A stretch of DNA of 63,717 nucleotides, filler included, from Phoronis australis (taxonomy: Eukaryota; Animalia; Phoronida), in the NCBI GenBank assembly GCA_002633005.1. It is 8 parts of 8 records of this genome, joined end to end, with 100 filler letters (N's around TTAATTAATTAA, not from the genome) between each part and the next. Parts side by side here need not be neighbours in the genome. Positions count along the whole stretch, not along the records: positions 1 to 28,946 come from NMRA01001189.1; 7 more parts are not named here. The stretch is one strand, 5' to 3'. The position numbers and the translations under genes were made by a program. A model generated the notes under the pieces. It was not told the DNA's origin and did no database searches. It saw only the letters and a list, made by a program, of their open reading frames with translations. How positions within the stretch are numbered: position 1 is the stretch's first letter; each line of letters begins with the position of its first letter. Shown in pieces: positions 1 through 60,810 of the stretch.

Positions 1-713
1 GACAACAACATGTGTGTTCATCCAGAGATTTTTCTCTTGTTGTGGAGTACGATGTAGCGCACATTTGGACTTAATCGCAATTAATCTGGACTCCACATGA
101 ACTTTAAAAATTGTAAAACATCAGGAAGATTTCAGGTAATTTGTTGAGTCGAAACTATATTTTTATTCAAGAGTACAAGTTTTCCTATTGACGATGGCGA
201 TTCAGCGGCGACGCATCAGTCGGCAAGTTTTCGCCCTGTGATGAGCACAATTTTTTGAAAAATTATCGTAATTTAACAACGGAAGTTCATAGCAATGCAC
301 CACAATTTTGTAGAAAGACTGTCATAGGCTAAAAATTCGTCACAAAGCGTAAATTTTATGAATCCTAGCTTCCGATTTTACCCGTTTGGGAAACCGGCTT
401 TCAACTGCCGTACGCTACAATAAGAATCCCCTACCCGTGAAATGATTTTTTCTAAGCGTTTATACAAGTATACAGCTTTCCACCAAGGCTAGGTGATACT
501 ATGACATTATTCTTTGTTGCATTAGTAACTGGTCTAGGCTAATACTATCATTTTATGGCCTGGTCATCCATTCAGCCAAAAGTAGTTCCAGAGGTGGCTT
601 ATCAGCCAATTATTCACGCATGCTGACTCACAATAGAAGCCTGATAAGAGTGAAGGTGGATAAATGCGGTGTTCCTACAGTTTCTTGTTTTAGTGGATGT
701 GTTCACGACATGT
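1..713. repeat. Dispersed non-coding repeat; inverted copy of 20315-20560 plus 21394-21843
   Basis: The reverse complement aligns by eye with those segments at high identity (e.g. ctccacatgaactttaaaaattgtaaaaca; ttcagccaaaagtagttccagaggtggcttatcagcc). This copy lacks the MITE present in the other copy. Confidence 0.9.
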
Positions 714-1196
714 GATTTCCTCCCACGAACATAGAATGCTGTTTACCGCATCAACTGGTAGAGCACGAATTTCACCGATCTTGCCCGATTTTTGCCAAAC
801 ATTTCCAACTTCGGTCTCTACTTCCTATTGTAATTTAAAGCATGTTTCATGTGTGTTGATTGCTGTGGTGGCAAATGCACAATCAAAAGTAATTAATCTA
901 GGAAAACTTAAATTTTAAGTTTGGAAGTTTTCACAAACTATCAAACGTATATATACGGAATTATTGTTGGTCTTCGATACTCGCAGTGGCGACTTCGTAG
1001 TGACATTTCCCAAGTCACCAAACGCAATCTGATGTCGCAAATCGAGCGCTTCCTGGTCTGCATTCTAAACAATGTTTCTATTTGTTTACTTGAAGGATGG
1101 GTCATAATTTCCTTTTGGTTTTAACTGTTCACGCTGTAGTTTGTCACTCATTTCCTAGTGTTTATTAAATCACAATTTTTCCTCATTCCACTTTAG

Positions 1197-1624
1197 CACC
1201 AGCTGTGCCAGTCAGGAATATGTCTGCAGGTGAGGCTCAGTGCTTGGCAGGGGGCAAGTCAGCAGGTGATCCCACTGCTGAACAGAAAATCACAGACTTA
1301 ACCAAAGAGGTAGGCACAGCTAGGTCTCTACAGCTATGACTGCAGTGTTAAGAAAGTCCAACCATTCTTTTTATTGAGGAATGTCTGTTAAACTGTCAAG
1401 TCCAATGTCAAGAGAGTATGCTGTTCCCATTACTTATAAAATACATTTAATTTATTATAATTATTAACCCTATGTGCAAATGTGTACATCTAGCTAAATA
1501 TCTGCAAGAATTCATTAAGGGGATCAAGCTCGATGAAACAATTTATTTTCTGAAAGAAATCTTGTAAAATAGTCTTTTCACATTGTTTCAAGCATGGACA
1601 GTTGGAGTGCACACTGCCTATCAG
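1197..1624 (+). CDS. Two candidate coding exons (1197-1309 and 1593-1624) of an unidentified gene
   Basis: Boundaries ctttag|CACC...AAAGAG|gtaggc and tttcaag|CATG...ATCAG|gtaaag are phase-compatible and give an open frame, PAVPVRNMSAGEAQCLAGGKSAGDPTAEQKITDLTKE/HGQLECTLPI. No homology recognised. Confidence 0.3.
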
Positions 1625-1709
1625 GTAAAGCCCCAGGGTACAGCAAAAAAAACAGTGCTTTCCGCGTTATCTCGTGACTGCATTTCCAAGAAGGTAGCCG
1701 ATAAAGGAG

Positions 1710-1899
1710 AGTGAGTGAGCGTGCGTGTGCGGGTCATCGACGATAGACTTTTTTGATACAAAAGGCGGAGGATTATGCAAGAAAATGGCGTTTACTAGAT
1801 TGTTTTTCACTTAAACGGCTGTAACGTGCAAGGTGAGTGCTGGTTAACTCACAGATTTTGTGTGCACAGGCCGACTGTCGTTAGCTCTGCCGTGGAGTA
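1710..1899 (+). repeat. Direct copy of the repeat segment at ~21885-22072
   Basis: Both copies share gcgtgcgtgtgcgggtcatcgacg...gttagctct(g/a)ccgtggagta. Confidence 0.9.
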
Positions 1900-2099
1900 N
1901 CCCAGATAGTGTAAATAATCACCATTTTTTACATCTTGTACCTTTTAGTGTATTAATGTAGATGATCCAAGAAACAAATAACATGGTTCAATAATGGAAA
2001 TTGTTAATGGCATCACTAATTTGCAAAACAAAAGCAACCCGGAGCATTGAAATGTGCCCACCAATGCACCGCAAACAGTGTGCTTCCAGGGGTGTTTAA

Positions 2100-3440
2100 T
2101 TGGAACATAAAAATTACCACATGATGGCACAAAATACGTTGAATCCATTCGAAAACTGTTATGTGTCATGAAAGGTATTTATAAAATTTCTTAAAAATCC
2201 GTCAAGAACCTTTTAAGAAACACAGGAAAATGAAAACAATAAAATTGCCACTACCAGGCTATAGAAGAAAAAATATAACTGCCACTAAGAGGCGCCACAG
2301 TAAATGAAGTCGTCGGAAAATCATCGTCAGACTTCCTGTTTATTGTAGGAACATATACATGCAAATTTCCACAACCATACTAAGACTGGTTTGGTTGATA
2401 GAGGGCGGATGCCAAATAATAAGACTCAAAAACAGTAAAACTGGTAACTAGGTGGTGCAAAATATCCCGAATCAAACTGAAAACGGGAGGATAGCATCAA
2501 CTCAATAATAGTTTCTTATCTGCCAAATTTTGTGAGAATCCGTCGATGACCAATGAACACAGACTGAAGTAAATTTTTTTAAAAAAAAATTGCCACTAAG
2601 GGGCACAACAGTAGTCCGATCCATATAAAAGTTGTGTTTGTTGTCAAGCTCACATGAACACTGCAGAGGGTTCAGGATATACAACCATGGGCAAAAAAAT
2701 GCCACCAGCAGGCACCACAGTTGTAGATGTTATTGGAAAAGCTTCGTCAGCCCTCATCTTCACATTTGGAATGTACATGCCATTTCCCTTATCATCCTTA
2801 GGGTGGTTTGGTTGACAGAGAGAGGCAGATGCCAAAAGCACACTCAAAAACAGTAAAAATGGCCACTAGGTGTCACTCAATGCCTCGATCAAATTCAACC
2901 GCAAAACCGGAGGATGGCGTCAACCCATTATTAGAAGCCTGTCAAACTTGTTGAAAATCTGTTGACGACCTTTGAAGATGCAAAAGTATACGTAAAAAAC
3001 TAATACTGCCAAAACAGGGCATATCAGTAGTCCAACCTGTCCGAAAGTCATCGAGCTCTATAATTGCTAACTACGTCCAGCAAAATTCAATAAAGATCCA
3101 GTTGATCGTTTACGAGATACAGCCATGGGTGTAAAAAAATAAAACTGCCAGTAGGAGGCGCCACAGCAGTCAAAGTCATCGAAAAATCATTGTTAACTGC
3201 CCTCCTCACAGTAAGAACATATATGCCAATTTCCAAAATCATCCCTGGAGCAGTTTGGCTGACAGAGGATGCCAAAACACAGACTCAAAAACAGTAAAAA
3301 TGGCCACTAGGTTGCGCAAAGCATCTCAATCTTTCTGAAAATGGGAGGATGGCATCCTCTCACTTATAGATGCCTAAATGCCAAGTGAGGGTAAAAAACT
3401 AAAATTGCCACTAGGCAGCTCACCGGTAGTTAGAGAGGTC
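2100..3440 (+). repeat. Diverged tandem array with a ~430-bp higher-order unit and recurrent TGCCACTAG-GGC motifs; resembles the central repeats of Helentron/DINE-like non-autonomous elements
   Basis: Homologous blocks recur at 2279/2699/3145 and 2441/2860/3301 (e.g. actcaaaaacagtaaaa three times). The family assignment is inferred from caaatttt...aatcc-type motifs. Confidence 0.7.
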
Positions 3441-3449
3441 TGAAATTCG

Positions 3450-3797
3450 AACTTACTTTAAACACTTGATGGAACAGTGCTCAACCGCCTAAACCAAGAC
3501 CATCTCTAGTAGGCGGGCGGTGTTCGTATTCGTAATCCTATTCGTTCCGGTTGATGTCGTTTGTGGTCTGTCGTTGGACTCTTCTTGCATCCTCCCTCTT
3601 GGAGAGTCCTGAGGTTGTCTTTCTGTAAATTTGGACGTAGCAATATGAGTGGGTGTGTCCTCGCGAACACAGCAGACGGACTGCTAATCCTAGCTGAACC
3701 CGTTGCTGTCTTTCCAAGCTCAGTCTCTCCTGATGTACCTTGTCTTTCCAAGTGTCATCCATCCTATTCATGGAAGTCACGGCTTCGCCGATAACTA
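3450..3797 (-). mobile_element. Putative HERO 5' UTR/N-terminus fused to an internally deleted second copy of the 3' UTR
   Basis: 3450-3510 repeats 3798-3900 with a central deletion. The intervening DNA has an open low-complexity frame, IATSKFTERQPQDSPRGRMQEESNDRPQTTSTG. Its identity as the HERO 5' end is inferred. Confidence 0.5.
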
Positions 3798-3819
3798 GAA
3801 CTTACTTTAAACACTTGAT

Positions 3820-3893
3820 GGAACAGTGCTCAACCGCCATCTTCAGTTGGTCTCCTACTGTCCTTAATGGTTTCGTCCCTAAACCTAGACCAT
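3820..3893 (-). ncRNA. Candidate permuted (pseudoknotted) hammerhead ribozyme in the HERO 3' UTR
   Basis: Minus strand reads ATGGTC-TAGGTTT-A-GGGAC-GAAACCAT-taaggacagtagg-AGACCAA-CTGAAGA-TG. Stems III and I pair; stem II is weak. Confidence 0.55.
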
Positions 3894-4693
3894 CTCTAGT
3901 TGATCAGGCTCTGTCTGACGGTTGTTGGTGGTGTTGCTGTTGGTATTTAATCCAAATCCAACAAGATGCCTGTTCAGCTTCAGTGGCTGCGTCGCGTAGC
4001 AGAGCCTTCTTTCCCGACACGGAGACGCCAAGACACCTCGCCATGGTAATGACCGAACTGGCCGGAAAACCCCGGCAGCCGACCTCGACAGGAAAACTCC
4101 AACATCTCCAGCCGTTAACATGACAATCATTCCTAAGGTCTGCGTACTTCAAGTTCTTTCGCTCNCCGACCTCCACAGGAAAACTCCAACATCTCCAGCC
4201 GTTAACATGACAATCATTCCTAAGGTCTGCGTACTTCAAGTTCTTTCTCTCGTGTGCCTCTTCCACCCTACTCTCCCACGGGATAGTGGGCTCAATTAAG
4301 ATGACCTGGTGGGAACTGTCCGAGTATATAACCAAGTCAGGGCGCTGGGTCGTCTGGACAATGTGTTGAGGGAAGAATGACTGATGACCGGAAAGGTCTG
4401 CCCACACTCTCCAGTCGTTGGCTGTGTGCAGGATACCTTTCTGCGCAGGGGTCTTCCTTTTATTCGCCTCATCACCACTTCTTAAGAAATTGATGAATTC
4501 GACGCGGTGGCTTCTCGGCTTCGGTTTGCTCTTCACCTCGTCGACCAACACCCTTGCAAAAACTTTGAGTACCTGGTTGTGTCGGTAAGTGTACCTTCCT
4601 GATGCCAAGGACACACTGCAAGATGATAGGATGTGCTCTAACGTACATCTGCGTCCACACTGAATACAGCTCGTGTTGTCAGCAAGGCCCCAN

Positions 4694-4780
4694 CCACGTC
4701 AGTACACCCACGTCAGTACACCCATGTCAGTACACCCATGTCAGTACACCCATGTCAATACACCCCATGTCAGTACACCC
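4694..4780. repeat. 14-bp minisatellite (GTCAGTACACCCAY), about 6 copies
   Basis: Direct inspection; it lies between two overlapping HERO fragments next to an N-join. Confidence 0.9.
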
Positions 4781-7764
4781 AAGAGGATAGGATGTGCTCT
4801 AACGTACATCTGCGTCTACACTGAATACAGCTTGGGTTGTCAGCAAGGCCCCAAGTAGCAAGGTTGCTGGGAGTAGGCAGTACGTCGTAAACAGATCTAA
4901 TGAGGAATTTGGCTTTCAGAGGAGACAACTTCCACAAATCAGCCCACTTGACTTCCCTTTGTAAGACTTTGTCCCACTTGGTCCATGCTCCCTGTTGGCC
5001 CATCTGGACTGCTCGGGCGTACCTTTCTTCGTTCTCTGATGATCTTACCTCCCTGATTATTCTGTCTCTGCCCGGGTCTTTAGATCTTTCCCTTGCTGGC
5101 TTATCGGTCTTGTAGCCCAGCCCTTGCCTACCCTGGCAAACTGTTCCTACTAACTGCCTGTGCCTCAGTCGACTCTCTGCTTCACTGATCGCCAAGGTTG
5201 TGGACCACTTTCTTCCGGTGCGTGATTGGATACTGCATCCTCTGATGGCCTGGACAGATGTATTCCGCAGAGTGATGCTGGCTCGGACTTTGGTAACTTT
5301 GTATTCTTCTACAACAGATGAGACTGGCAGGACAAGTTTTGACGACGTCCGACGTTGCTGAATGACGCGGGTAGTCCAAGCCACCTTCGAATGAATCTCC
5401 TTGCTTCCCTTTCCATTTCTTCCACTAATATACTGACCTTGAGGAACAGCGTGTCAACGTGACGTCACCAGCTTTTACGCACACTTCCCCTTCGGTGCAA
5501 TCCTTTACTGTACAATTCAAAGCGGTTTCTGTAACGAAGTCACTTTCAGACATGTTTGTTGGAATTAACATTGCTTATTTCGCAATTTCCATGTTCAGGT
5601 CGTGGGGAACAAATGCCCTTTTTTAAACGGGTATTGTCGACAAGAAAAGTGATTTTCTACACGCTAGACCAACCTGTGCTCTGAATCGATCCTGGCGTGC
5701 GCTCAGTAGACGCTAGGACCTACGCTAGGACCTAGCTAAAGCCTAGTCAAAGTCACGTGTTCTCATTTAAAATGCACGGCAATGTGTCACGTAGTCTCGC
5801 GAAGTCTTGCTTTTTAGCGAGGTCCTAGTGTTACTGAACGGGAGGCTGAACTCCCCGCTGCCACAGTTTGAAGCCCTGATAACTTAGCTAAACACTACTG
5901 AATTACTGAATGTGGAGTTCAAGCGTATCTATATTTGGAAAGGTGGCTGGCTTTGATTTCAGGCTCTGAACGATGATTTGTAACAAAATCACAAGGATTT
6001 GTGCCCAAAAAACCAAAGATGTCACTTCAAGAGATAACAAATGATTTTTTCAGAGAATGATTAATTTTTTTGTTATTTACGAATGACCTGATATTTTGTT
6101 ATGCTCTCGTTTTCGAGAGTCCCTCGTTGCTGCAGGGATCCTAAACGACCGTTTATGTAGCAAATTCTCGAGACGACCGTGCTATCCTTAAAATATTTCC
6201 GGTTCACTTAACCCTTCCTTCACGTACCCCTCTAAAACGGGTACATGTACTTGCAAGTCACCAGGCAAATACATCATTTTGTCACTTTTCATAGTGAGTA
6301 CCCGTTTTGTTGAAAAAATATTTTCACAGCTGAAAAAAATAGCTCTTTTGTCATATTAAAATATATTTGGGCCCTTCACGTTCTCATATCATGTGTGCGT
6401 AGCACAAGGGTAAACATGAAAGCGATTTTAATTTGAAGAAATGCAGACACTTTATTCTGAGCTAAAAACGCAGTATAGAGTNTTGCACTCTAAGCAAATG
6501 CAAAATGTTTTCGGATATGACAGAAATATATTTTTCAAAATAGTTCTCCAAGAAAGCTGAGATATGTCTTTTTCAGCAAATCTACCTTCTTTCGTCCTCT
6601 TTTGAGGATTTGTAGTTCCCTTTTGAAGTTGTGTAAAAAAACAGCGTACAGTGACTTCTTTTTCATTATCAACCTGCAAAAAAATCTGTATTAGTCGAAA
6701 GTTCTAGTATGCAAGTCCACATTTCAAACCAAAAATGCAGTTGTACAGACATTGACGTCAAAATTTGTCAATTAAGGCAAAACCTCTAATTTGTCTGTCC
6801 AGACAAATTTTGGAGTGCATTTTTATACTACTGGGTATCTTTTATTGGTTAACAGAACAATGACGTACTGTATGCGCTCACGAATGCGGTATTGTCATTG
6901 TAAATAGTCTATACAAATTTCAGTAAGTGACCAACTTTTTATAAAGAATCTTTCCTAAATACTAAAATATTCTCGTTAAATGACATGCTAGATATAGATG
7001 GAGATTTTCTTACACACAATTATATATATTTTTCAAAAAGAAATACATAAAATTATTGTTTTGCAATACCTTTGTTTGGTCAATTCAGTAAAGTCTTAAA
7101 GCCATTCTGAAAAGTGTTATTCAACATGTCAATTAAAAAAAGTGAGCGCAACTGTTTTACAGTCTACTCCATAAAATTGAACATGAACATCTTTACAATG
7201 NCAGTAAAGTCTTAAAGCCATTCTGAAAAGTGTTATTCGACATGTCAATTAAAAAAATGAGCGCAACTGTTTTACAGTCTATTCCATAAAATTGAACATG
7301 AACATATTTCCAATGTATCAAAAGGAAATCAATTGAAGGATACTCCTCAGAGGAAGTTTAAAGATTTACGATTTAAATTGCCATTAGGCGGCACAGTGTT
7401 TCTCGGACTCATCTGAAAGTTGTCATTGTTGGTTCCCAACTTCATAAAAATACACTTGTTGAAATTAATAACAATCCTGCTGAGGGATTAGGAAATACAG
7501 GCATGGCCATAAAAAGGCATCTAGGAGGCACCACAGTAGTCGAGGTCGTGGGAAAATCATTATCAGAAGTGTTCTTCACATTAAAAACTTACTTTCTGTT
7601 CGCCAGCAGCAGCTTTTTCAACGGCTCCTTCACCTATGAAACAAAGTAGAGGACTCATGAATCAGCTTAGATATAATATTCGGTAAATAATTCAAAGAAA
7701 GGTAAAAATAGGTTTAACCAAACATGAGTTCCGTCTTGTTTTCTCTATTACCAATTTGAGACTT

Positions 7765-9659
7765 GTCAGGGCGCTGGGTCGTCTGGATAATGTGTTGAGG
7801 GAAGAATGACTGATGACCGGAAAGTCTGCCCACACTCTCCAGTCGTTGGCTATGTGCAGGATACCTTTCTGCACAGGGGTCTTCATTTTACTCGCCTCAT
7901 CACCACTTCCTACGAAATTGATGAATTCGACGCGGTGGCTTCTCGGCTTGGGTTTGCTCTTCACCTCGTCGACCAACACCCTTGCAAAAACTTTGATTAC
8001 CTGGTTATGTCGGTAAGTGTACCTTCCTGATGCCAAGGACACGCTGCAAGATGATAGGATGTGCTCTAACGTACATCTGCGTCCACACTGAATACAGCTC
8101 GTGTTGTCAGCAAGGCCCCAAGTAACAAGGTTGCTGGGAGTCGGCAGTACGTCGTAAACAGATCTAATGAGGAATTTGGCTTTCAGAGAAGACATCTTCC
8201 ACAAATCAGCCCACGTGACTACTTCCCTTTGTAAGACTTTGTCCCACTTGGTCCATGCTCCCTGTTGGGCCATCTGGACTGCTCGGGCGTACCTTTCTTC
8301 GTTCTCTGATGATCTTACCTCCCTGACTATTCTGTCTCTGCCCGGGTCTTTAGATCTTTCCCTTGCTGGCTTATCGGTCTTGTAGCCCAGCCCTTGCCTA
8401 CCCTGGCAAGCTGTTCCTACTAACTGTCTGTGCCTCAGCCGACTCTCTGCTTCACTGATCGCTAAAGTGGTGGACCACTTCCTTCCGGTGCGTGACTGGA
8501 TACTGCATCCCCTGATGGCCTGATCAGATGTATTCCGCAGAGTGATGCTGGCTCGGACTTTGGGAACTTTGTACTTTTCTACCACGGATGAGACTGGCAG
8601 GACAAGTTTTGACGACTTGCAGTATAGTCCGACGTTGCTGAATGACGCAGGTAATCCAAGCCACCTACGAATGAATCGGCTTGCTACCCTTTCCATTTCT
8701 TCAGCTGAGGATGACGTGACGTCATAGACAAGCAGTGGCCACATAAGCTTCGGGAGCAAGATGAACTGATAGCACCAAACCTTGAACCTTCCGGGTATGC
8801 CATCTTTGTCAATCTTCACAAGCCATACCTTGAGCTGGGCTTTCACGTCTTTAACTCGGGATGTGTCTCGTAGGCTGCTGTCATAGTACTTGCCCAGGCA
8901 CTTGACTGGTTGTTCACTGATTGTTGGAATTCTGCAACCTGCTATAGAAAACGACTGTCTCTTGAGCAACACTCCTTTCCTGATGATTAATGATATGGAC
9001 TTCTCTGCCTTGAATGACATACGTGCCCATTTAGTGAGCTCTTCTAGGCGACAGAGAATTGTCCTGGCTCCCACTGGTGACTCTGTCACTATCGTAATGT
9101 CATCAACAAAAACTCTGCAAGATGGCTGTCTGACTTCATCGAGCTTGGGACCTCTCCTCTCAGACTGGGCTCTCTTCAATAAGACGTTCATTGCCATAAT
9201 AAAAAGGATGACTGAAACTGTGCAGCCCGTCATGATTCCTTTCTCTAGGTGTTGGCACTTGGTAGTGAAGTTGCCGACTGTGAAACGCATCACGCAGGAG
9301 CTGTAGTAAGACTTCACTATACTCTTGACTTTCTCGGGAATGCGGTAGATATCCATGACACGATAAACTAAAACATGTGGAACAGAACCATACGCATTTG
9401 CCATATTGAGCCACACCATAGACAGGTTCTTCTTGATCTTTGCTCGTTGTGTGAGTTCACTAATTATGGAATTATGTTCCAGACATCCAGAAAAGCCTGG
9501 CACCCCGCCTTTCTGCGATGACGTGTCGATGAACTTATTCTTGATCATAAAGTCAGTCATTCTGCCAGATATAATGGCTAAGTAGATCTTTCCCTCTATG
9601 CTGAGCAGTGAAATGGGTCGAAACTGGCCAATCTGCTTCGAGTTTTCTTCCTTCGGGAC
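7765..9659 (-). mobile_element. HERO-clade non-LTR retrotransposon copy 2 (RT domain to start of endonuclease; ORF 7692-9560 open upstream to the N at 9660); probably inactive
   Basis: RT motifs FRPISLL, QKGGVPGFSGCLEH, VWLNMANAYGSVPH (catalytic D replaced by N), GIMTGCTVS and FVDD, plus a CCHC knuckle. It has a 1-bp deletion near 7823 and is truncated at 7765. Confidence 0.93.
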
Positions 9660-10140
9660 NCCTCAGAGGAAGTTTAAAGATTTACGATTTAAATTGCCAC
9701 TAGGCGGCAGAGTGTTTCTTGGACTCATCTGAAAGTAAGTTGTCATTGTTGGTTCCCAACTTCATATAAATACACTTGTTGAAATTAATAACAATCCTGC
9801 TGAGGGATTAGGAAATACAGGCATGGCCATAAAAAGGCATCTAGGAGGCACCACAGTAGTCGAGGTCGTGGGAAAATCATTATCAGAAGTGTTCTTCACA
9901 TTAAAAACTTACCTTCTGTTCGCCAGCAGCAGCTTTTTCAACGGCTACTTCACCTATGAAACAAAGTAGAGGGCTCATGAATCAGCTTAGATATAATATT
10001 CGGTAAATAATGCAAAGAAAGGTAAAAATAGGTTTAACCAAACATGAGTTCCGTCTTGTTTTTCTCTATTACCAAATTGAGACTTGTTGCAGTGATGAGT
10101 TTGCATTTTACCATGACAAGTATTACTCTCCTTCGTATAC

Positions 10141-10288
10141 TTTGGAAATTGTAAGCAGGGGCAGATCCATAATACTGAGTTACATGTGGCTGGGCACAGT
10201 ATTAGTCAGCAGTTTGGAAATTGTAAGCAGGGGCAGATCCATAATATTGAGTTACATGTGGCTGGGCACAGTATTAGTCAGCAGTTTG
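10141..10288. repeat. 72-bp minisatellite, 2 copies, cut by an N-join
   Basis: Same unit as 14957-15246. Confidence 0.85.
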
Positions 10289-13200
10289 NCATCTGGACAA
10301 TGTGTTGAGGGAAGAATGACTGATGACCGGAAAGTCTGCCCACACTCTCCAGTCGTTGGCTGTGTGCAGGATACCTTTCTGCACAGGGGTCTTCCTTTTA
10401 CTCGCCTCATCACCACTTCTTACGAAATTGATGAATTTGACGCGTTTGCAACCACATAATATGGGCAAATAAAAATGCACGTGGGACACTTTTTCAACTT
10501 AACAAAATTTTTCATTTCTCACACTTGAAACATTTTAACCTTAAAAAAACATAAAGATTCATATTCAATCTCAAAACGCCCCTGACGCATATGAAAGCGC
10601 TCGAGGTGTTTCGTTATTTTGTACGCAGAGGTCTTTCGTTTTTCTGCATTGCACTCTAAGCAAATGCAAAATGTTTCCGGATATGACAGAAATATATGTT
10701 TCAAAATAGTTCTCCAAGAAAGCTGAGATATGTCTTTTTCAGCAAATCTACCTTCTTTCGTCCTCTTTTGAGGATCTGTAGTTCCCTTTTGAAGTTGTGT
10801 AAAAAAACAGCGTACAGTGACTTCTTTTTAATTATCAACCTGCAAAAAAATCTCTATTAGTCCAAAGTTCTAGTATGCAAGTCCACATTTCAAACCAAAA
10901 ATGCAGTTGTACAGACATTGACGTCAAAATTTGTCAATTAAGGCAAAACCTCTAATTTGTCTGTCCAGACAAATTTTGGAGTGCATTTTTATACTACTGG
11001 GTATCTTTTATTGGTTAACAGTACAATGACGTACTGTATGCGCTCACGAATGCGGTATTGTCATTGTAAATAGTGTATACAAATTTCAGTAAGTGACCAA
11101 CTTTTTATAAAGAATCTTTCCTAAATACTAAAATATTCTCGTTAAATGACATGCTAGATATAGATGGAGATTTTCTTACACACAATTATATATATTTTTC
11201 AAAAAGAAATACATAAAATTATTGTTTTGCAATACCTTTATTTGGTCAATTCAGTAAAGTCTTAAAGCCATTCTGAAAAGTGTTATTCGACATGTCAATT
11301 AAAAAAAGTGAGCGCAACTGTTTTACAGTCTACTCCATAAAATTGAACATGAACATCTTTACAATGTATCAAAAGGAAATCAATTGAAGGATACTCCTCA
11401 GAGGAAGTTTAAAGATTTACGATTTAAATTGCCACTAGGCGGCACAGTGTTTCTCGGACTCATCTGAAAGTTGTCATTGTTGGTTCCCAACTTCATATAA
11501 ATACACTTGTTGAAATTAATAACAATCCTGCTGAGGGATTAGGAAATACAGGCATGGCCATAAAAAGGCATCTAGGAGGCACCACAGTAGTCGAGGTCGT
11601 GGGAAAATCATTATCAGAAGTGTTCTTCACATTAAAAACTTACCTTCTGTTCGCCAGCAGCAGCTTTTTCAACGGCTACTTCACCTATGAAACAAAGTAG
11701 AGGGCTCATGAATCAGCTTAGATATAATATTCGGTAAATAATGCAAAGAAAGGTAAAAATAGGTTTAACCAAACATGAGTTCCGTCTTGTTTTCTCTATT
11801 ACCAATTTGAGACTTGTCAGGGCGCTGGGTCGTCTGGACAATGTGTTGAGGGAAGAATGACTGATGACCGGAAAGTCTGCCCACACTCTCCAGTCGTTGG
11901 CTGTGTGCAGGATACCTTTCTGCACAGGGGTCTTCCTTTTACTCGCCTCATCACCACTTCTTACGAAATTGATGAATTCGACGCGGTTGCAACCACATAA
12001 TATGGGCAAATAAAAATGCACGTGGGACACTTTTTCAACTTAACAAAATTTTTCATTTCTCACACTTGAAACATTTTAACCTTAAAAAAAACATAAAGAT
12101 TCATATTCAATCTCAAAACGCCCCTGACGCATATGAAAGCGCTCGAGGTGTTTCGTTATTTTGTACGCAGAGGTCATTCGTTTTTCTGCATTGCACTCTA
12201 AGCAAATGCAAAATGTTTCCGGATATGACAGAAATATATTTTTCAAAATAGTTCTCCAAGAAAGCTGAGATATGTCTTTTTCAGCAAATCTACCTTCTTT
12301 CGTCCTCTTTTGAGGATCTGTAGTTCCCTTTTGAAGTTGTGTAAAAAAACAGCGTACAGTGACTTCTTTTTCATTATCAACCTGCAAAAAAAATCTCTAT
12401 TAGTCCAAAGTTCTAGTATGCAAGTCCACATTTCAAACCAAAAATGCAGTTGTACAGACATTGACGTCAAAATTTGTCAATTAAGGCAAAACCTCTAATT
12501 TGTCTGTCCAGACAAATTTTGGAGTGCATTTTTATACTACTGGGTATCTTTTATTGGTTAACAGTACAATGACGTACTGTATGCGCTCACGAATGCGGTA
12601 TTGTCATTGTAAATAGTGTATACAAATTTCAGTAAGTGACCAACTTTTTATAAAGAATCTTTCCTAAATACTAAAATATTCTCGTTAAATGACATGCTAG
12701 ATATAGATGGAGATTTTCTTACACACAATTATATATATTTTTCAAAAAGAAATACATAAAATTATTGTTTTGCAATACCTTTATTTGGTCAATTCAGTAA
12801 AGTCTTAAAGCCATTCTGAAAAGTGTTATTCGACATGTCAATTAAAAAAAGTGAGCGCAACTGTTTTACAGTCTACTCCATAAAATTGAACATGAACATC
12901 TTTACAATGTATCAAAAGGAAATCAATTGAAGGATACTCCTCAGAGGAAGTTTAAAGATTTACGATTTAAATTGCCACTAGGCGGCACAGTGTTTCTCGG
13001 ACTCATCTGAAAGTTGTCATTGTTGGTTCCCAACTTCATATGAATACACTTGTTGAAATTAATAACAATCCTGCTGAGGGATTAGGAAATACAGGCATGG
13101 CCATAAAAAGGCATCTAGGAGGCACCACAGTAGTCGAGGTCGTGGGAAAATCATTATCAGAAGTGTTCTTCACATTAAAAACTTACCTTCTGTTCGCCAG

Positions 13201-23129: not shown

Positions 23130-25075
23130 ATTTGTTCTGGCTATTAAAAAAATCTTCACAAAATATGAGGCCTGCATTGTACAGCTCTTGTTAAAATAAT
23201 GATTTACCGTTAACAGTTAAGTTACAATAGTTCCATATCACTGTTTGGCTATTGGTACTTCATTAAAAATTTTAGGATTAAGAATACCCAAGATTGTGAG
23301 AACAATTTGTAAAAAGGTTCTTAATTTCGCATTTTAGGGTTTTCAGTTGAAAATTGGATGAAAAAATGAGCACACCGTCAAGTTGCCTAATAAGATGCCT
23401 CGGGTATATCTTCCAACTTGCCTCATCCTCTGTATAAAAACGCTGGACCCAATTAAATAATATGTTTAACTTGATCAGTTCCATGTTAGGATATTTCAAA
23501 CCACCCTCTTGATATGGCGAGATAGTCAGTTTCTTTTATTTTTGGTGGTTTATTTAACCAAATAAATTGTCTGACAAGTTTATTAACTTCACAAATATTT
23601 TTTTGGTGATAGCCACAGCTGACACCACATGAATGAGTTTAGAAAAACCAAGTTTTCGTAAGGAAGATTCTGCCTTTTATGGACAAATTTTGTATTTTCC
23701 AAAAATTAAACAGGTCTTTAAGCTTTTGGATTTTATCATCAAAATTGAGTTTTTCAGCGTCATCCCCTTTTCCACAAAAGAATATTCCTAGACTTTTAAT
23801 GGTTTACGATTTCGGTGCGTTGTTGAGGCAAACATACCTTGGTATTTTTCATAATTCAAGTGGAGTTCAGATAATGTTCCAAAACAATCTAAAAATCTAA
23901 AACAGTTATTGCCAGATTCTACATCTTTAATGAAAAGACCTGTATCGTCGGCATACTGTGCAATTTTGATTTCGTGATTGGCTATTGTGAAGCCTCTAAT
24001 TACTTCATTGCTTCTGATATGATGTGACACAATTTCCGCACACATGACGAACAGCGGACTTGATAGTGGGTCTTCTTGTCGGAGGCCTTTCACTATGTCA
24101 AAATACTGTTATGAAGATGTAAATCCGTAGTTCAACACAGATGACGGAATTCCAGAATACAATGTACAGATTCTATTGATAAAAACGTCACCAAAATTAA
24201 AAGCTTTCAAGGACTAAAATAAAAACTCCCACTTTACAGTATCGTACATTTTCTTGAAATCGAGGAATACAATGTGACCGTCGGTGTACTTTTCCTCATA
24301 AAATTCAATCTTATCGTCAATTATACGTATATGTATATTCTGGCCTATATAACGTTTTGGCAAGGATGTTTGACCTGGATGAATTAAATTGTCAACATAT
24401 TTGTATATTTTGTTTTCAATTGTTAGTCACAGTTCAAAAGAGAGACAGGTCTCCAATTGTCTAAAGATAGTAATTCCTCGGACTGTTTACTTTTCGGGAT
24501 TAGCGTGATTACGCCTTGCTTTTGAGAGTAGGACATGTGACCGTTTCCAAAGCTGTATTTGACGCTCTCCAAAAAATCGTCTTTAATTACCTTCAAAGGT
24601 TTTATAAAATTCATAGCTAATGCCATCATTACCAGGCGTCTTGTTAGATTTTATCTCTAACAGAGATTCATATAATTCTTCTTCTGTTAGATTTTTTCTA
24701 AATCGTAAGAATCTGCAGCTTTTTATGTATTGGAAAATTAAAAGGTCAATTAGATATGTTCTTTCTCCGTTGCATTCTTCAATATCGGGGTAAAGTTTTT
24801 TGTAATAGTTCAATTGCATATTCCGTATGCTTGCTGCATCATGTATAATTTTAGCACCATCTTTAAGGCCATTTATATGTTTTTGCTTGCCGTGGCGCAA
24901 CTCTAGGTTTATGAAATATTTTCCATTCGTGCCTTGTTCTGCCCACAGTGCTTTACTACGCAGAATCGAGCCCTTAATTTTTTGGGTCTGGATAATGTGC
25001 AAATCAATTTTGGCTTTTTGTAAATCTTTTTTTAATTCCTCTGAAGGGTCGCTTTCCACCTTGGCAGTCACAGTT
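23130..25075 (-). pseudogene. Degraded L1/Tx1-clade LINE ORF2 (reverse transcriptase)
   Basis: Motifs GSILRSKALWAEQG..KYFINLE, KTPGNDGISYEFYK, GVITLIPK..NWRPVSLLNCD, GLRQEDPLS, QYADD and GGLKYPN are spread over several frames with stops. Confidence 0.9.
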
Positions 25076-26789
25076 TTTTTCTATTAAAACAATTTTTGTC
25101 AGAGCGGGTATTTTTTGCAACCTCTTTTGCAATAAACCCCCTTATAACTTAACATTTTTAAGGAAGGAAACTGTCTATGACCAATGTTCCTCAAACCGTG
25201 ATATTTTAATTTCATGGCGTTTGTAAACATGGCGGTGTGCACACATGGTAACATAATGTTGAATGGCCATTTATTTTTATTTGATGACAATAAGCACCAT
25301 TTTGTTATTTAAAAAGCAATATTTACATTTGCAATGACCATTTGTGTTACTGAATTCCACATGGGGGTACGTGCACTACATTTTGTTAGCCTTTTTGGCC
25401 CATTTTCAACGTAGCCCAGTCAATATCCAAACTTTTGATTTGTTGATATTAAATAATTTGCTGTGTTGCCTAGGCCAACATATTCAGCAGTATGTTTTAT
25501 CACTGAGTGTGAACGTTAGTTTTTAACCTTCTTTATAATAGATGAGGGTTAGAAACACAGAATTTACAAATTTCATGAAGAGTGCCTGTTTTACGATGAA
25601 CCATATCATTTCCCAATGATTAAGCATAACATCATCTAAGTGACTCTTAAAGTGACTCAATTTATTCCCAGTAAGTGCTTACTTGATCAAATATTTTTTT
25701 TCTACTGTTAACAGTTGAAACTTGTAATTCTTAAAATGGCCACTCGTTGTGCATGAAGTTCATAGACAAAAACATGCATAAACTCCTCAAACATTGTGCG
25801 AATTTGATGATTCTTTTTTTAATTTGCACAACTAAATAACTCGTTGCATATGAGATTCAGTTGGCATTTGGTAAATGGCCAAAAAAATTTTAGACTGTTA
25901 CACAGTCAAGTCTTGAACATGGACCTTGATTGTGATTTAGCTGACTGTCACTGACTCAACTTTCACGTCGGCAACTAGCCTTGTGCTCTAGCTCAGTCTT
26001 TCAATGGCTCCCGTGAAGAACAATATCGCCGTATCTGCATATTACCTGAAATTTGTGAGTATTTAACGCCGCATAATCTAAACGTTTTATCGGTGACCTA
26101 AAAGAACAATTTTACCCTGTAAAAATGCAGAATTTTTTGTCTCAATGATGAATGCGAGCTGGATTTTGAAAATACATCAAGACCTCGGTTTCCTTGTTTT
26201 CTGCAGGTGTATCTGCACGTAACTTGGTTATGACATTACAGAATAGTTATCCATATAGTACCATCATGGGTTATTGTGTACAATCTGACTCTATAAAAGT
26301 GCATACTTGATACTTGAATATTTTCTGAATCCTCTAGTCACGGTGATTCTAAAAAATACTGATTGGCCGCTTCTTGTTCATAATTTCCGGGTTTTTCCAA
26401 GTCCTTCATTTGTTTATGTGCGTCACATGATTTAATTGTCATGTTGTATTACATTTGCCATTTCATGCAGCACAGTTTATGAATCACACCAATGATGTCA
26501 CAGTTCCTGCACCAACAAATGAGTTACTGTATTTGCCCTAATAACCGCCCATGCCCTCATACAGAACAGCCACTGAATTATTAGACTCCGTCCGGTCTGC
26601 CTGATGCCTGGCCAGACCGGAGTTTAACTGGAACGCAGGCGTGAGAGAAATCTGTCAAGGCCTCCTCACGCCTACTCTCCAGGTAGCTCTCACGTTTACC
26701 TCCGCTTTGCTTAACGCTTTCCTCACGCTTTTCACACGCTTCCGTCACGTTTAGCTCACGCCATCGATACCTGCGGTAGCATACAGTAC

Positions 26790-39754: not shown

Positions 39755-41979
39755 AAGATATGGCGTGTATGAAGACCGGCTATTAATACACACTCTAAGA
39801 ATATTTCTCTGGGTCTCCAGTTTGATCCAGGGAAGTTTGGTGAGTTTTAAAGTCTACAGTGAAACAACGGCGAAACGATCCTTCTGTCGCCTTACAATCT
39901 CTGGCACGATATAATTTCATTCATTTCGAACTGCCTTACGGACGTCGAATGCCAAAATAACTATCTTCGTATTTTTAAGCGCAAACGTTTGGCTTTGAGT
40001 TTGGACATTAACGAACTTGGTTTAAATTTACTTTAGACCAGCAGGTCACGTGATGATCTCAGTGAGCCCTTGGTTAACACAAAAAGGGATAGTTTTCAAG
40101 CGTTGCATTCATCCGTCAAAAATAACAAGCGACAGCAGTCTGTTACACTGTTACAAAAAACTAAGCTTTGTTTCTAGCTATGTGTATACGATTTTATGTT
40201 ATGTAGTGCTGTGTATTAAGAAAAAGAGCGAATGCAACTACCGACATAACTACGACCGTGACGATGCAATGCGATACAGTGCATCACACACAAGAGAAAG
40301 GATGCAGTATACGAAATCTACAATTCCTGTTTAACGCGATCTAATCGCAACCGAACCGACATAAACTACATAAAGACTAATTTTGGAGCAGATCTTGTAA
40401 GTCGTGAACCTTTTGCTGTTTTCGCTTAATCTATGTTCCAGTAACTATCTTGAGTTATCAGTTTCCATAGTTTTTGCATTTTCTTACCTTCTACTTCATC
40501 TAACGTGGCATTTTCAAAGTCCTGTGTAATGAAAAGAGAGATGTATACCATCAAGCGAGAGAAATAAATATAGAGGTCGCTTTAATCACACAAGTGCGTT
40601 CTGCCGCAAGGTTCATTGTAGTGCAGTCTCCTGTCCGTAACGTTTGACGTTAAGTTATCTCCGCTGTGAGAATCCAAATTTACATTACGGCGTTTTCCCG
40701 CTGCTCCCATCTTGTTGGATTCCATATAGCCCAACAACAAGTTGGAAAGTTTACCCCTGTAGCCAATATCTTACACGACTGATTACCTCCATTCTGGTAT
40801 TTATGGTTGGAGGGCCAGCTCTCTTTTGTTCGATAATTCCTCTAGCCTAATCTCCAATAAGATCCTAGCTAACCTGACTGGGCTGTGCTGTTAAAAATAA
40901 AAGTTAGTTATAACATATTTGAACATAAACCAAAAGCATTTCTGAAACCTGACTCAAATGGGGATCGTTGTTTAGTTTTTGAATCTCCAAAATCGCCCAA
41001 CTGCAACTGAAGTTACGACAATCTATTTTTTTTCGAATACACCAATTCACTCTGAGTTTGACTGTGTTCACACGTGGCCTGTAATAAGCCTGGTAGATAT
41101 TTTCCAGCTTGTTGTCATGACAGACAAAAGACTGTGCTTGGCAGTTAACAAAGAAGTTAGATGTTATCACACGCTCAGAACCCCCTACGTTTGGTAAAGT
41201 CACTGAACGGGAAAACGCTGTAATGCGAGTAACTGACATTTGCAGCTGAAAGTATAGCGATCTTTTTTGAACTGGGACTAGGCGTGGGTGTGCGGACCAT
41301 TGATTGAGAGCACGGTTGTATTGTACAGACGGTGATCAAGTCAGCCTCAGGCACGATTAGGTTGAGAAAGAATGAACTACTCTAATACGTACCCGGTATC
41401 AATAGTATCAGTGTTGATATCAAGAAAGATTCCATTTATACTATTTTAGTCGATATAAGTAATATCGATATGAGAAGAATAAAGTGTAATGCTATCACGT
41501 AGTTTTACTGTCAGTTTTCGGTTTTGATATTTTAGCACTATAAATATTAGCATCAAAATCGAATGAACTGTAAGTAAGTAATATCCACGTGGTTCTTTGA
41601 AAATGCCAGAGTGAAATGGCTACATCAGTAATATTATTTAGTTCAAGGATAGCTATTAGAGAATCATTCCAACAAAGAAAGAGTAAGCTTACGTAATAGA
41701 CTGGAAGTATTTTGTCATCTTTCAACAACACGTGGTTCCCGAGTTGCTCAAAGTTTCGGACAGCAGACGATATTAACTGAAAATCAAAGGGAACATAAAA
41801 ATCATCGATTCTGAAATCCATTGGGGTGCTAAATTTCGGTAAGGCCTGAGTTGGGTTCAAGTGTTTCAAACCAGTCACANNNNNNNNNNNNNNNNNNNNN
41901 NNNNNNNNNNNNNNNNNNNNNNNTTAATTAATTAANNNNNNNNNNNNNNNNNNNNNNNNNNNNNNNNNNNNNNNNNNNN

Positions 41980-42835
41980 TTCTGTTTGGATTGTCATTTT
42001 GAGCTCATTTCGTTTTGCCTGATTCCTGGCGTGTATTTTGCGCAGATCTTGGGTGCCACTTTCGATTAATTTTTCCATCAACGTTCGAAAATAGTTTTTA
42101 ATTGCCTGTTCTTCCTCTGATAAGGTGTTGCTTGAAATATCATCGTTCTTCTCGATCTTTTCTCTAATCTTTTTCAATATCTTCAACTTATTATCGACCT
42201 TGTCTAATATTTGAGTGAGGTTGGTCTTTGCCGTCTCGTGTGCCGCGCTAATCTGACAGCGGTTTTCGCCACTGTGACGACAACAGGCCAAGTTCACACA
42301 GTCTGTACACAACAACAATTTGCATTCCTTACAGTAGTATTTGTATCTCTCGTTGTGTTGCGCGCACTTGGAACTCTGAAGTGCTCTGATTGCTTCATCA
42401 TGTTTGCCTTCACGGAACTCGACAAGGCTGACTATGTTATGTGACACTGTGTGTACGCGATGGTTCTCTTCACACGTTGCACACAACCGCTTTCCCTCAC
42501 ACGTAATACAGATGAAAGTGGGGGCCACGTTGTGGCAGAATGAACAAGGATGATCCGCNATCCGCTTTATGCTGTTCTAAAAGATCCACCAGATTCTTGA
42601 TCATGACATTACATCCAATCCCAACAATGCCCTCCGGCGGAATTTCCATTTCGTGTCTGCAGTACGGGCATGGGTATTTGCCGTGTTCGAGCCGTTCTTC
42701 GCTATCATTCTGGAGACATTTCAAGCACAAGCTGTGTCCGCAGGGTAACGTCCTCGGATCTGTTAACGTCTCTGTGCAGATGCAGCATTCCAATATCCCG
42801 TCGTCAATGATGGTGTCTCGAAGATTTTTCGCCAT
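41980..42835 (-). CDS. TRIM-family E3 ligase (RING, B-box1, B-box2, coiled coil), 3'-incomplete
   Basis: RING CCICTE..LPCGHSLCLKC..CPYCR; B-box1 CSFC..CITC..LCATC..H..H; B-box2 CAQH..YYCKEC..CTDC..H. The frameshift at N 42559 is removed by deleting the duplicated gcggat+N. An acceptor AG lies just upstream of the ATG. Confidence 0.93.
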
Positions 42836-58676: not shown

Positions 58677-60810
58677 TTGGCTCCACAAATATCTTGTTCT
58701 GAGGCAGTTGTTCCAATCATTTCATTCAGTGTCAGTCTTAAATACAACATAAGCCTGCTCACCTTGTTTTCATAAACTTTCTAGGTAGTGGTAGAAAAAT
58801 TTATTTGCGTTGTATTCCGTTTAGGCCTGTCTATGTCCCCCAGTCAAGCAGTGTTTTCTCACTATAGGTGAAGATTTGGTAAACGCGAAAGGTCAACTCG
58901 GGTTCTTAATCTACAAGTGAAACTTGCTGAAAATAGTTGGTCTTAAAAGCGAAGCTTCGGTACTCATGTAAGCTGTTGTGTAGTGGGAAAGGTCAGAGCG
59001 AAACTTCGGTGACGTTATCGATAGAGATCGTGGTAATGATATAGGATCACGCGAGGAAATCATTATCCCACAAAACGTGTTCTTTGGTACTGAATAGTCA
59101 GTTTACGTTGGTACATTTCAATTCATAAATAAATAAAAGAGTACGTATCAGATGAAGCATGACATGATCATTTTTATAAACACATGTAAGTGTTGGAAGA
59201 ACAATTTTCAGTTAGCCTCAAACCCACCGCTCAATATTCATTTGAGGGTACGAATGAACTACGCCGTCTGGAACTTTTCTCCGATGACTGAATCACCGTA
59301 AGTTCAATATTGCTATCTAGTGGGAAAGGTAATCAAAGTTTTGGCGAAGCTTCAATAAACCGAAGTTCCCCTAATGGGAAAGCACCTTTGGCATTTAATA
59401 TGCTTTCTAGTGTCCAGGAAGTTTTTAAGATAATAAAGTCACACTGGTGAGGTGATCAGTGTCGTGGATTGTTATTCATTTTAAGAAGATTCAACCCAGT
59501 TTTATTTTATCATGGAAGTAGTAACAGTCTGATACCTATTTTAGTATGTGCCTGCTACAAGTCTATAAAACTGGGCGTCATTGAATTAGGTTTTCCGTTA
59601 CATGCACGTGAACTCAAGCATTGCCTACAAAGTTGTGAAATTTACATGAGTTTCTGAAAGGCCAACTAATTAAATTAATGATTGAAGTCCTTTTAAGAAC
59701 TGAAGGTTTTCATACTTATAAAACATAGACAACATAATATAAATACCAGCATTAGATAACCTGAATAATGCCCAAAATCATGCCATTCAGGTTTGAACAC
59801 AGTTTTGTGTGTTGATACCAGTCATGAGGTTTTCTTGTACGTTATGAAATGGTTGTATTGTAGGATACTTGCATTTTGTGAAATAATGTAATTTGCTACG
59901 CTTATTATTACCCATTGAAGTGATCTTCAATCTCGTAAGTATTGTACCAGATTGCTCAACTCACGTGCTACCCTGACTTGACCTGGCTGTTGGAAATGGG
60001 CCACCAGATGATCGAATGTGCCCCAGCCTGTTTCAGGTTGGACCAAATTGCGTTGGATATTTTTATGGCTGAATTGAAACATAGTCCTGCAGATGGCATG
60101 TAACATAGAAGAGTCCAAATGAATTTAAGCAGCGGCACATAATGTTTTGCAGGCAGTTTATCCCGTTCAATCCGCTTGCAATACATTCCACGCCTCACTG
60201 AAAAAGGAATATTTATACAGATAATGTTTTGTTGTGATAATTTTGCATTATGTTTTGTTTTCAATAAAAAGTTCAACTCAGTTGACAGTTCACCATTGAC
60301 AGAAGTTTATCAGGTGCCCTAGATTTTATAACAACTCATATCCTTAAAAAATTGGTTAATGATGATTGTCAGGTTTTCTCAATCACCATCTTGTATTCAC
60401 TCATTTGTTATAGGTGTGGTGTCTTAAAGAATTGAATGTTTATGCGATGGCTAATGTCCTCAGGACAATTAAAGGTGTCATTCTTTTGTAATAAATGAGT
60501 TTAAGATTTAAAATTTTACCTTAACTGTCTTGAAAAATAAGTTGTCCTCAGCTGTGTCTGCTCCAGCCTTGTGAAAAGTGTAATTTGCATTTAGTGCTCG
60601 GCTCGCTTGTAAGTATGAAGGAAGGANNNNNNNNNNNNNNNNNNNNNNNNNNNNNNNNNNNNNNNNNNNNTTAATTAATTAANNNNNNNNNNNNNNNNNN
60701 NNNNNNNNNNNNNNNNNNNNNNNNNNGTTTCAAACAATAATAAACTGCTACTTCTTCCCAAAGTTATATCACAGCTGTGTAAGAAACAAGTCAAGACTAG
60801 CTCTGAAACT

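Follow-up and report, generated by a model that had tools for sequence, protein, structure and literature searches.

A deletion-damaged six-helix fold in a HERO-like 3' UTR of Phoronis australis and the predicted split-core hammerhead ribozyme of its intact relatives

Introduction

Hammerhead ribozymes with permuted blocks have been described as type SGC (HRIMA-1 and its variants, together with types CSG and GCS; Eckert et al. 2023, PMC10085705). In that description, the cleavage site, GAAA and CUGANGA (blocks S, G and C) follow each other in this cyclic order, the link between stems I and II is short, and a I-II helix joins the far ends of these two stems. Block C, composed of a stem I strand, CUGAnGA and a stem II strand, is taken as indivisible, and cleavage in vitro has been published (PMC10085705). 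Types I, II and III have the cyclic order C-G-S and a three-way junction. The CChMVd (+) viroid hammerhead indicates that the step between A9 and G10.1 tolerates an insertion, as it has one extra base there and is otherwise canonical (PMC3705267).

Self-cleaving RNAs are also found in retroelements. Penelope-like elements and non-LTR retrozymes contain hammerheads and occur as tandem arrays, head-to-tail or partial (PMC11167929, PMC6765202, bioRxiv 10.64898/2026.07.22.740005), and both a circular RNA and an internal start of reverse transcription have been proposed for them (PMC11167929, PMC6765202). The Penelope-like elements have canonical or minimal type I folds, a telomerase-like reverse transcriptase and a GIY-YIG nuclease. 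In the non-LTR retrotransposons R2, L1Tc and RTE, the ribozymes are HDV-like and are located at the 5' end, which their cut defines (PMC6765202). Hero LINEs, which encode a restriction-like endonuclease, are known from sea urchin, lancelet and fish (PMC9004415).

The fold described here, in the 3' UTR of HERO-like LINEs, shares with type SGC the core letters, the block order and the short link between stems I and II, and its helix P4 is the counterpart of the I-II helix. Unlike type SGC as presented in PMC10085705, it splits block C between A9 and G10.1, closes the opening with two helices, P5 and P0, and connects stem III and P4 through a kink-turn. Where CChMVd has a single additional base, the HERO-like fold has these two helices and the RNA's own ends. 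The hammerhead and the head-to-tail copies are shared with Penelope-like elements, but the host LINE has a restriction-like endonuclease at the C-terminus. With R2, whose protein resembles that of the HERO-like element, it would share the presence of a self-cleaving RNA in a non-LTR retrotransposon, with the difference that both sides of the predicted cut lie inside the element. No report of a hammerhead in HERO, or of a core split at A9/G10.1, was found in the literature searched, a set that has most subscription papers and the Repbase reports outside it; the supplement of PMC10085705 makes no mention of kink, Danio or Branchiostoma.

Results

The host element and its 3' UTR

The window, i.e. 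the whole stretch of Phoronis australis DNA that was analysed (63,717 nt), contains on its minus strand a retrotransposon that we take, as a preliminary description of this locus did, to belong to the HERO clade. The motifs of its C-terminal ORF (4698-3904) are presumably a CCHC knuckle and a restriction-like endonuclease. The homologues of this ORF part are RVT_1-bearing proteins, the named ones coming from lancelet, fish and scallop; P0014 is the nearest full-length homologue, and R2 proteins are its first matches in PDB. The Hero trait of a single ORF with a reverse transcriptase and a C-terminal restriction-like endonuclease is present, the RVT_1 domain (E 4.7e-19) being found in a neighbouring copy of the window that is 93-97% identical to the ribozyme-bearing copy, and P0014 being R2-like. 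The lancelet, fish and scallop homologues fit Hero's reported host range (PMC9004415). Placement of the host element in the HERO clade, which is based on agreement with the description in PMC9004415, is likely.

The features of the element are as follows (coordinates of the window).

4773-5453, minus strand: retrotransposon ORF piece, 5'-truncated (thumb and zinc region), with a weak zf-RVT match (E 0.00098) and 93% identity to the RT-bearing copy at 8047-8702
3904-4698, minus strand: C-terminal ORF of the HERO-like element, stop codon at 3906-3904, with an 87-nt duplication across an N at 4165
3916-3924, minus strand: P5 5' strand, inside the last codons; pairs 9/9 with 3839-3831
3898-3915, minus strand: P0 hairpin, 5' arm and loop, with the palindrome UGAUCA at 3906-3901; the 3' arm is mostly deleted in the window copy
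3897/3898, minus strand: point at which 17 nt are missing, with loss of the 3' arm of P0 and the 5' strands of stem II and P4
3881-3896, minus strand: block S, with kink-turn GA (3896-3895), stem III 5' strand, GUC and stem I 5' strand; predicted cut 3888/3887
3866-3879, minus strand: block G, with stem II 3' strand, C11.1, GAAA and stem III 3' strand
3854-3865, minus strand: 3-nt kink-turn bulge, GA and P4 3' strand
3840-3853, minus strand: block C without its stem II strand, i.e. stem I 3' strand and CUGAAGA
3831-3839, minus strand: P5 3' strand, beginning directly after A9
3797-3830, minus strand: 3' tail; most copies in the species stop at 3797-3799, about 90 nt past the cut
3518-3796, minus strand: run-on, head to tail, into the element's own 5' start (start motif at 3782, 5' UTR, first codons)
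3449-3517, minus strand: second 3'-end fragment, which keeps a portion of the stem II strand, P4 and block S, skips 41 nt with blocks G and C, and continues into tail

A second copy of the HERO-like element (7692-9662, minus strand) has the RT domain, breaks off within the endonuclease region and is without 3' UTR. Units of about 1.5 kb, each holding an endonuclease-region piece of the retrotransposon, are repeated several times between 6482 and 15251 with 96-99% identity; they are often joined at single Ns and may form a true tandem array or result from the assembly. At 4694-4781, beside an N, the ORF is interrupted by 6.2 copies of a 14-nt minisatellite, with a duplicate of 74 nt on either side.

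A hammerhead core that lacks a stem II strand in the window copy

The full fold extends from 3924 to 3831 on the minus strand. A GUC site is followed by GAAA and then by CUGAAGA, the series starting 10 nt past the stop codon. The preliminary description had proposed a hammerhead core with this order of segments in the 3' UTR of an RLE-type LINE, with a predicted cut between 3888 and 3887; all its segments are found on the minus strand where it had placed them, and the proposal holds in these points. The core letters (C3 U4 G5 A6 N7 G8 A9, G12 A13 A14, A15.1-U16.1, N17 not G) are complete. Stem III has 6/6 pairs (3894-3889 with 3866-3871) and stem I has 6/7, with a mismatch at 3886/3848. In the window, a single S-G-C arrangement has stem III at 5/5 and stem I at 6/7 or better; 100 block-shuffled windows, searched on both strands, contained none. 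Single-strand folding of the window copy, by a program that cannot model pseudoknots, was no better than that of shuffles (z -0.7 to -1.3), and P5 is also present in the MFE fold.

Rfam gave no hammerhead match in window positions 1-12000 at E up to 10, and five intact loci, with a limit of E 1, had no match at all. The idea that standard descriptors would miss the fold was therefore right, though the order itself is not new, as it has been published as type SGC (PMC10085705).

The stem I mismatch is peculiar to few copies. Others have U at 3886 in 257 of 263 depth units (contigs of X1), and the same is seen in RNA, with 23 of 24 reads in X5 and 11 of 12 in X6; in the family, stem I is perfect. 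That the mismatch could be removed had been suggested by comparison with a 'sister' copy. The suggestion was sound, but the sister is a fragment (3517-3449) without blocks G and C. The 41-nt skip of this fragment recurs as a joint 3836-3878 in one contig.

More consequential is the absence, between 3898 and 3897, of 17 nt carried by other copies of the same species (8 reads in X5 and 5 in X6, in two main variants, plus single contigs). These bases complete a 7-bp P0 hairpin with 3915-3909, provide, as read by eye, a strand that pairs 5/5 with 3879-3875 from the G10.1-C11.1 pair onward, and supply the partner of 3859-3854 in P4. Part of them is retained in the sister fragment (3517-3508); the P4 3' strand of the window pairs 6/6 with 3513-3508 of this fragment and 5/6 with the post-deletion sequence. 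Stems I-III with the G10.1-C11.1 pair are thus found in the family and not in the window copy, where the stem II 5' strand is gone. No record among those listed bridges the window's deletion, which is therefore private to this copy or an assembly error.

The fold is real at the level of the family and broken in the window copy, which, because the deletion removes the stem II 5' strand, is probably impaired and would cut poorly or not at all. The weak stem II noted in the preliminary description reflects the deletion and not the design, the true strand lying upstream of the cut. A construct in which only the stem I mismatch is repaired would still be without this strand and could give a false negative. 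A drop in contig depth towards the cut (from ~2200 to ~320, three listed contigs ceasing to match at 3883-3885) was discarded as a sign of cutting, being distorted by the reference deletion 10 nt away.

The core is opened between A9 and G10.1

The strands follow each other in the order P5a, P0 hairpin, stem II 5' strand, P4a, block S, block G, P4b, stem I 3' strand with CUGANGA, and P5b. Judged from pairing, the stem II 5' strand is located upstream of the cut site and not after A9. As P5 starts one base after A9 and P0 ends one base before G10.1, the core is opened between these two nucleotides. In all loci listed, a P0 hairpin of at least 4 pairs can be drawn before G10.1, the end that the search had fixed, and in most of them the strand starting right after A9 pairs with the bases just before the P0 hairpin. 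Together with stem II and the G12-A9 pair, P5 and P0 would form a perfect four-way junction.

The preliminary description had placed stem II after CUGANGA. That placement gives 2/5 pairs in the window copy and, at the best of three offsets, 2.95/5 in 20 families, which is the chance level (3.13 in the upstream cross-family control), as opposed to 4.77/5 for the upstream strand. The unbroken block C of type SGC is accordingly not what the family shows, and neither is the arrangement of types I, II and III, the order being S-G-C. If A9 is joined to G10.1 on paper, the cyclic order of SGC, CSG and GCS is obtained, so that the fold amounts to a further opening of that circle. A 7-bp linker helix (3863-3857 with 3827-3821) that can be drawn in the window had also been proposed; other copies have a different base at 3825 in 1832 of 1909 depth units, so that the middle pair is lost and the helix is not conserved. 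In the family, its 5' strand belongs to the kink-turn and P4.

In a kink-turn, two helices are linked through a 3-nt bulge and, after it, tandem G-A and A-G pairs; the motif bends the RNA sharply and binds proteins of the L7Ae type. This pattern is found between stem III and P4 in 18 of 22 families, is absent in L043 and L064 and is altered in L001 and L049. The kink-turn would fold P4 back, allowing it to clamp the far ends of stems I and II. Four loci without the pattern (L043 2142-2212, L060, L064 597-665 and L035 2038-2105) keep P0, P5 and the split core, and would make handy minimal constructs.

Conservation and covariation in a family of HERO-like loci

A protein-based scan of metagenome contigs, blind to RNA, confirmed 162 of 238 candidates and returned 79 loci, of which 43 were positive in a strict fold search. 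The 36 negatives comprised 14 with a mutated or more distant copy, 7 with less than 140 nt after the anchor and 15 in which none was found; among these 15, L046 carries a copy at a greater distance, L033 is internally deleted and L047 is cut short. A descriptor with the permuted order, run on whole loci as had been advised, gave 50 matches in 49 of the 79 loci, all sense and none antisense, and no match in 3,079,440 bases of shuffled sequence.

The 43 loci fall into 23 groups (less than 80% core identity), 22 of which were tested for pairing; L035 was omitted as its spacing differs, and the start of stem II was placed by hand, 21 nt before N17, in L013 and L061. In each case the pairing of a family's own strands was compared with that across families. 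The rows had been picked by pairing of stems I and III, which inflates the values of these two stems: 4.91 vs 2.80 of 5 for stem I and 4.91 vs 3.90 of 5 for stem III (22 families each). The tests of stem II and P5 are free of that selection. For the stem II strand 20-22 nt upstream of N17, own and cross-family pairing were 4.77 and 3.13 of 5, with the same three offsets for both; P5 gave 5.0 vs 2.72 of 6 (20 families) and P4 gave 4.78 vs 2.61 of 5 (18 families). In permutation tests the observed pairing of each helix was reached in 0 of 20000, a count that is not a probability because the families are related. From these comparisons, all six helices are seen to covary across about 20 families, and the check that had been proposed for stems I-III, conservation with covariation, turned out in favour of the fold.

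An alignment supported this conclusion. With MAFFT (A3, 23 rows, without L043, L064, the window and six further rows), 96.4% of the cells of stems I and III were paired, compared with 34-49% in slid controls, and two-sided changes occurred in 9 of 11 pairs; only these stems were counted, as A3 is off by one column at stem II. A first alignment (A2, 31 rows), in which L043 and L064 were misaligned, was not counted.

The catalytic letters are also kept. CUGANGA is exact in 21 of 23 families, one of the others having U3 with G8 and one U3 with A8; the change from C3-G8 to U3-A8 is a known compensating change of the active hammerhead fold (PMC3088659). N17 was never G in 14 of 14 further copies found with this position unrestricted. 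The G10.1-C11.1 pair is G-C in 19 of 23 families and G-U in 2. In the 23 families, the ribozyme lies 75-213 nt past the last conserved tryptophan of the ORF.

In a protein tree of 65 rows, with several long branches, the fold is spread across the tree, which is too weak for counting loop switches. In one well-supported clade (L037, L067, L068, L072 and L074), no ribozyme was found in up to 3.5 kb searched; loss, truncation or another fold 3' of the ORF are options there. The protein scan confirmed 0 of 22 candidates in viral contigs and gave one marginal match in prokaryote genomes (L080, E 3e-4). Fifteen viral-contig matches to the bare motif pattern were rejected, as they reach at most 11/15 stem pairs, and a descriptor match near window position 59130 (13/15, one core mismatch) lies below threshold and is unlike the HERO-like element. 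A lineage with a long 3' UTR has repeated AAUCCC/GGGAUU hairpin-like motifs (L017 1619-2254, L046 1240-1979, L048 3456-3969, L062 1561-1869); in L017 and L046 the ribozyme is located 635-739 nt past the anchor.

A palindromic loop in P0

In 21 of the 43 loci, the P0 loop contains a self-complementary hexamer 32-38 nt before N17 (UGAUCA in 12, UGGCCA in 8 and UGGUCA in 1). With a search pattern whose outer letters were fixed, the remaining loops were UGAUCC in 2 loci, a GACG loop in 11 and others in 9. The hexamer switches within single families, that of L004 holding both main forms, and variant reads in Phoronis australis keep the hexamer with changing flanks. No second copy was found within 400 nt in 20 of the 21 palindromic-loop loci. 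Our guess is that the hexamer may form a kissing-loop dimer; the GACG class implies that such an interaction would not be universal.

Head-to-tail copies and RNA ends

Past its tail, the window copy runs on into the element's own 5' start. The first codons match residues 59-100 of P0014 (tblastn, 43% identity, E 6e-6), and variant contigs cross 3786, in the region of the tail and run-on. The stop of most copies at 3797-3799 was seen in 17 records of X1 (contigs) and 7 reads of X6 (RNA), all of them loose ends.

Run-on into the 5' start was found by motif in 6 of 44 matches. By N-terminal protein match, it was found in the window and in L004, L013, L021, L034, L040, L042 and L064. The start motif was present ahead of the ORF in 5 loci; tail sequence directly precedes it in 4, L053 included, and the fifth, L027, fell outside the test. 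L053 is a flanked insertion starting with 31 nt of its own tail; the junction is nearly the same as in L018/L021, which indicates that it was inherited. Collapsed assembly of repeats may account for L018/L021, L024 and L048. In L002, the upstream unit is only 77% identical to the downstream one, so that the two were not produced from one circle, and L045 was rejected as a run-on because it is part of a longer genomic duplication. L048 begins inside block C and continues with 5' UTR. In L075, a direct repeat of about 32 nt, 94% identical (543-574 and ~1598-1629), flanks a 5'-truncated insertion and is likely a long target-site duplication. The junctions between tail and 5' start fit a circular or multimeric RNA template. 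For the window copy, whose ribozyme is 17 nt short, the run-on is equally explained by an uncut tandem transcript.

Same-species RNA reads cross the predicted cut at a depth of ~24 in X5 and ~12 in X6, in both orientations, and no pile-up of RNA ends was seen there among the ends listed in these low-depth runs. In 25 same-family comparisons, there were no indels at the cut and 2 substitutions at cut+1, no higher than elsewhere.

Discussion

Our preferred reading, which we consider probable, is that the window contains a deletion-damaged six-helix fold in a HERO-like 3' UTR and that the intact copies are split-core self-cleaving hammerheads, likely making unit-length circle templates from tandem transcripts. 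Of the two parts of this reading, self-cleavage by intact copies appears very likely, and the formation of circles has about an even chance.

Cutting, binding of the products, rejoining and internal priming are steps that we infer. After the cut, the 5' piece would stay on the 3' piece via P5, II, P4 and III (about 25 bp or more), so that the RNA would be nicked rather than released and rejoining would be favoured. Where units follow head to tail in one transcript, a circle could be closed by pairing of the 3' half of the upstream ribozyme with the 5' half of the downstream one. Reverse transcription would start within the tail, ~90 nt past the cut, and the enzyme would pass the resealed site and the ORF before going on into the tail again; synthesis beyond one unit would produce the terminal overlaps and tandem copies that we observed. 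This scheme parallels, by analogy, the model put forward for Penelope-like elements (PMC11167929, PMC6765202, bioRxiv 10.64898/2026.07.22.740005). A more elaborate version, in which HERO LINEs replicate via circles, each of the two ends of the unit RNA carries part of the core, which only the four-way junction completes, and the P0 kissing loop pairs ribozyme copies for a strand swap, is tentative and, in our view, somewhat doubtful.

Alternatively, the ribozyme could be active as a cutter of the 5' end, like the HDV-like ribozyme of R2: it would cut the downstream unit of a tandem loose from a read-through transcript, with that unit's own ribozyme staying uncut in the template, and tandem copies would arise from template jumps of the reverse transcriptase rather than from a circle. 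The ribozymes of R2, L1Tc and RTE are indeed described as releasing the element from a co-transcript (PMC6765202), the ribozyme lies just 104-154 nt upstream of the start motif in tandem copies, and the two short deletions and one long jump in the window insertion suggest a jumping enzyme. Yet insertions should then begin at cut+1, and none does among the loci (L053 starts at ~cut+124 and L044 at cut-94). Such a cutter would also leave the four product-holding helices unexplained, and we regard it as unlikely.

Less probable still is a scaffold derived from a hammerhead that cuts rarely or not at all and binds protein, serving as the 3' recognition element for target-primed reverse transcription. 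LINE proteins bind the 3' UTR, so that the position of the fold matches their binding region; kink-turns are protein-binding motifs, and RNA reads cross the cut site uncut. Binding alone, however, requires neither the catalytic letters nor the U3-A8 compensation nor the avoidance of G at N17, all of which persist despite diverged stems.

We see very little room for a contiguous type-SGC hammerhead that would be active in the window copy itself, its stem II being either a single pair that follows an extra U or a helix supplied by 3824-3820. The latter segment can pair 5/5 with 3879-3875, and natural hammerheads with a single-pair stem II exist (PMC3088659), but the family shows no stem II pairing after A9, the strand there is used by P5 (9 bp in the window), and intact copies carry a dedicated stem II strand upstream. 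A chance arrangement of short motifs, compatible with the shuffle-like folding of the isolated window copy by a program to which pseudoknots are inaccessible, is refuted by the covariation, by the descriptor matches as compared with shuffles and by the poor pairing of the viral-contig motif matches, leaving it a negligible probability.

Compared with the literature searched, what is new is the split core and the LINE host, the block order being already known as type SGC (PMC10085705). The HERO-like fold breaks the rule, stated in that paper, that block C is uninterruptible, and the split explains why this ribozyme, common in animal repeats, escaped a search for permuted hammerheads across RefSeq. 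For the non-circularly permuted hammerheads, the fold provides a host whose kind is known, along with dozens of natural variants to test, intact family members being far better specimens than the window copy. The circle reading, if true, would add to these hammerheads a fourth opening point and mean that an R2-like LINE can replicate by rolling circle. Such a LINE, copied from a circular template, would combine the strategies of R2 and Penelope and could be relevant to tools that insert genes from RNA templates. The question of how RNA is made and terminated in RLE LINEs that have no fixed target site becomes testable.

Other features of the window

A very abundant repeat at 3391-3434 is unrelated to the ribozyme; it is covered by 2000 to 2600 RNA reads per run, with the first mate nearly always of one strand. 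Two further ORFs on the minus strand were judged by eye. One (41932-42576) has two Cys/His-rich stretches and a coiled-coil-like tail, with a resemblance to a B-box (TRIM-like) protein. The other (24583-25080) is a fragment resembling an L1/Tx1-type ORF2 just ahead of the RT domain.
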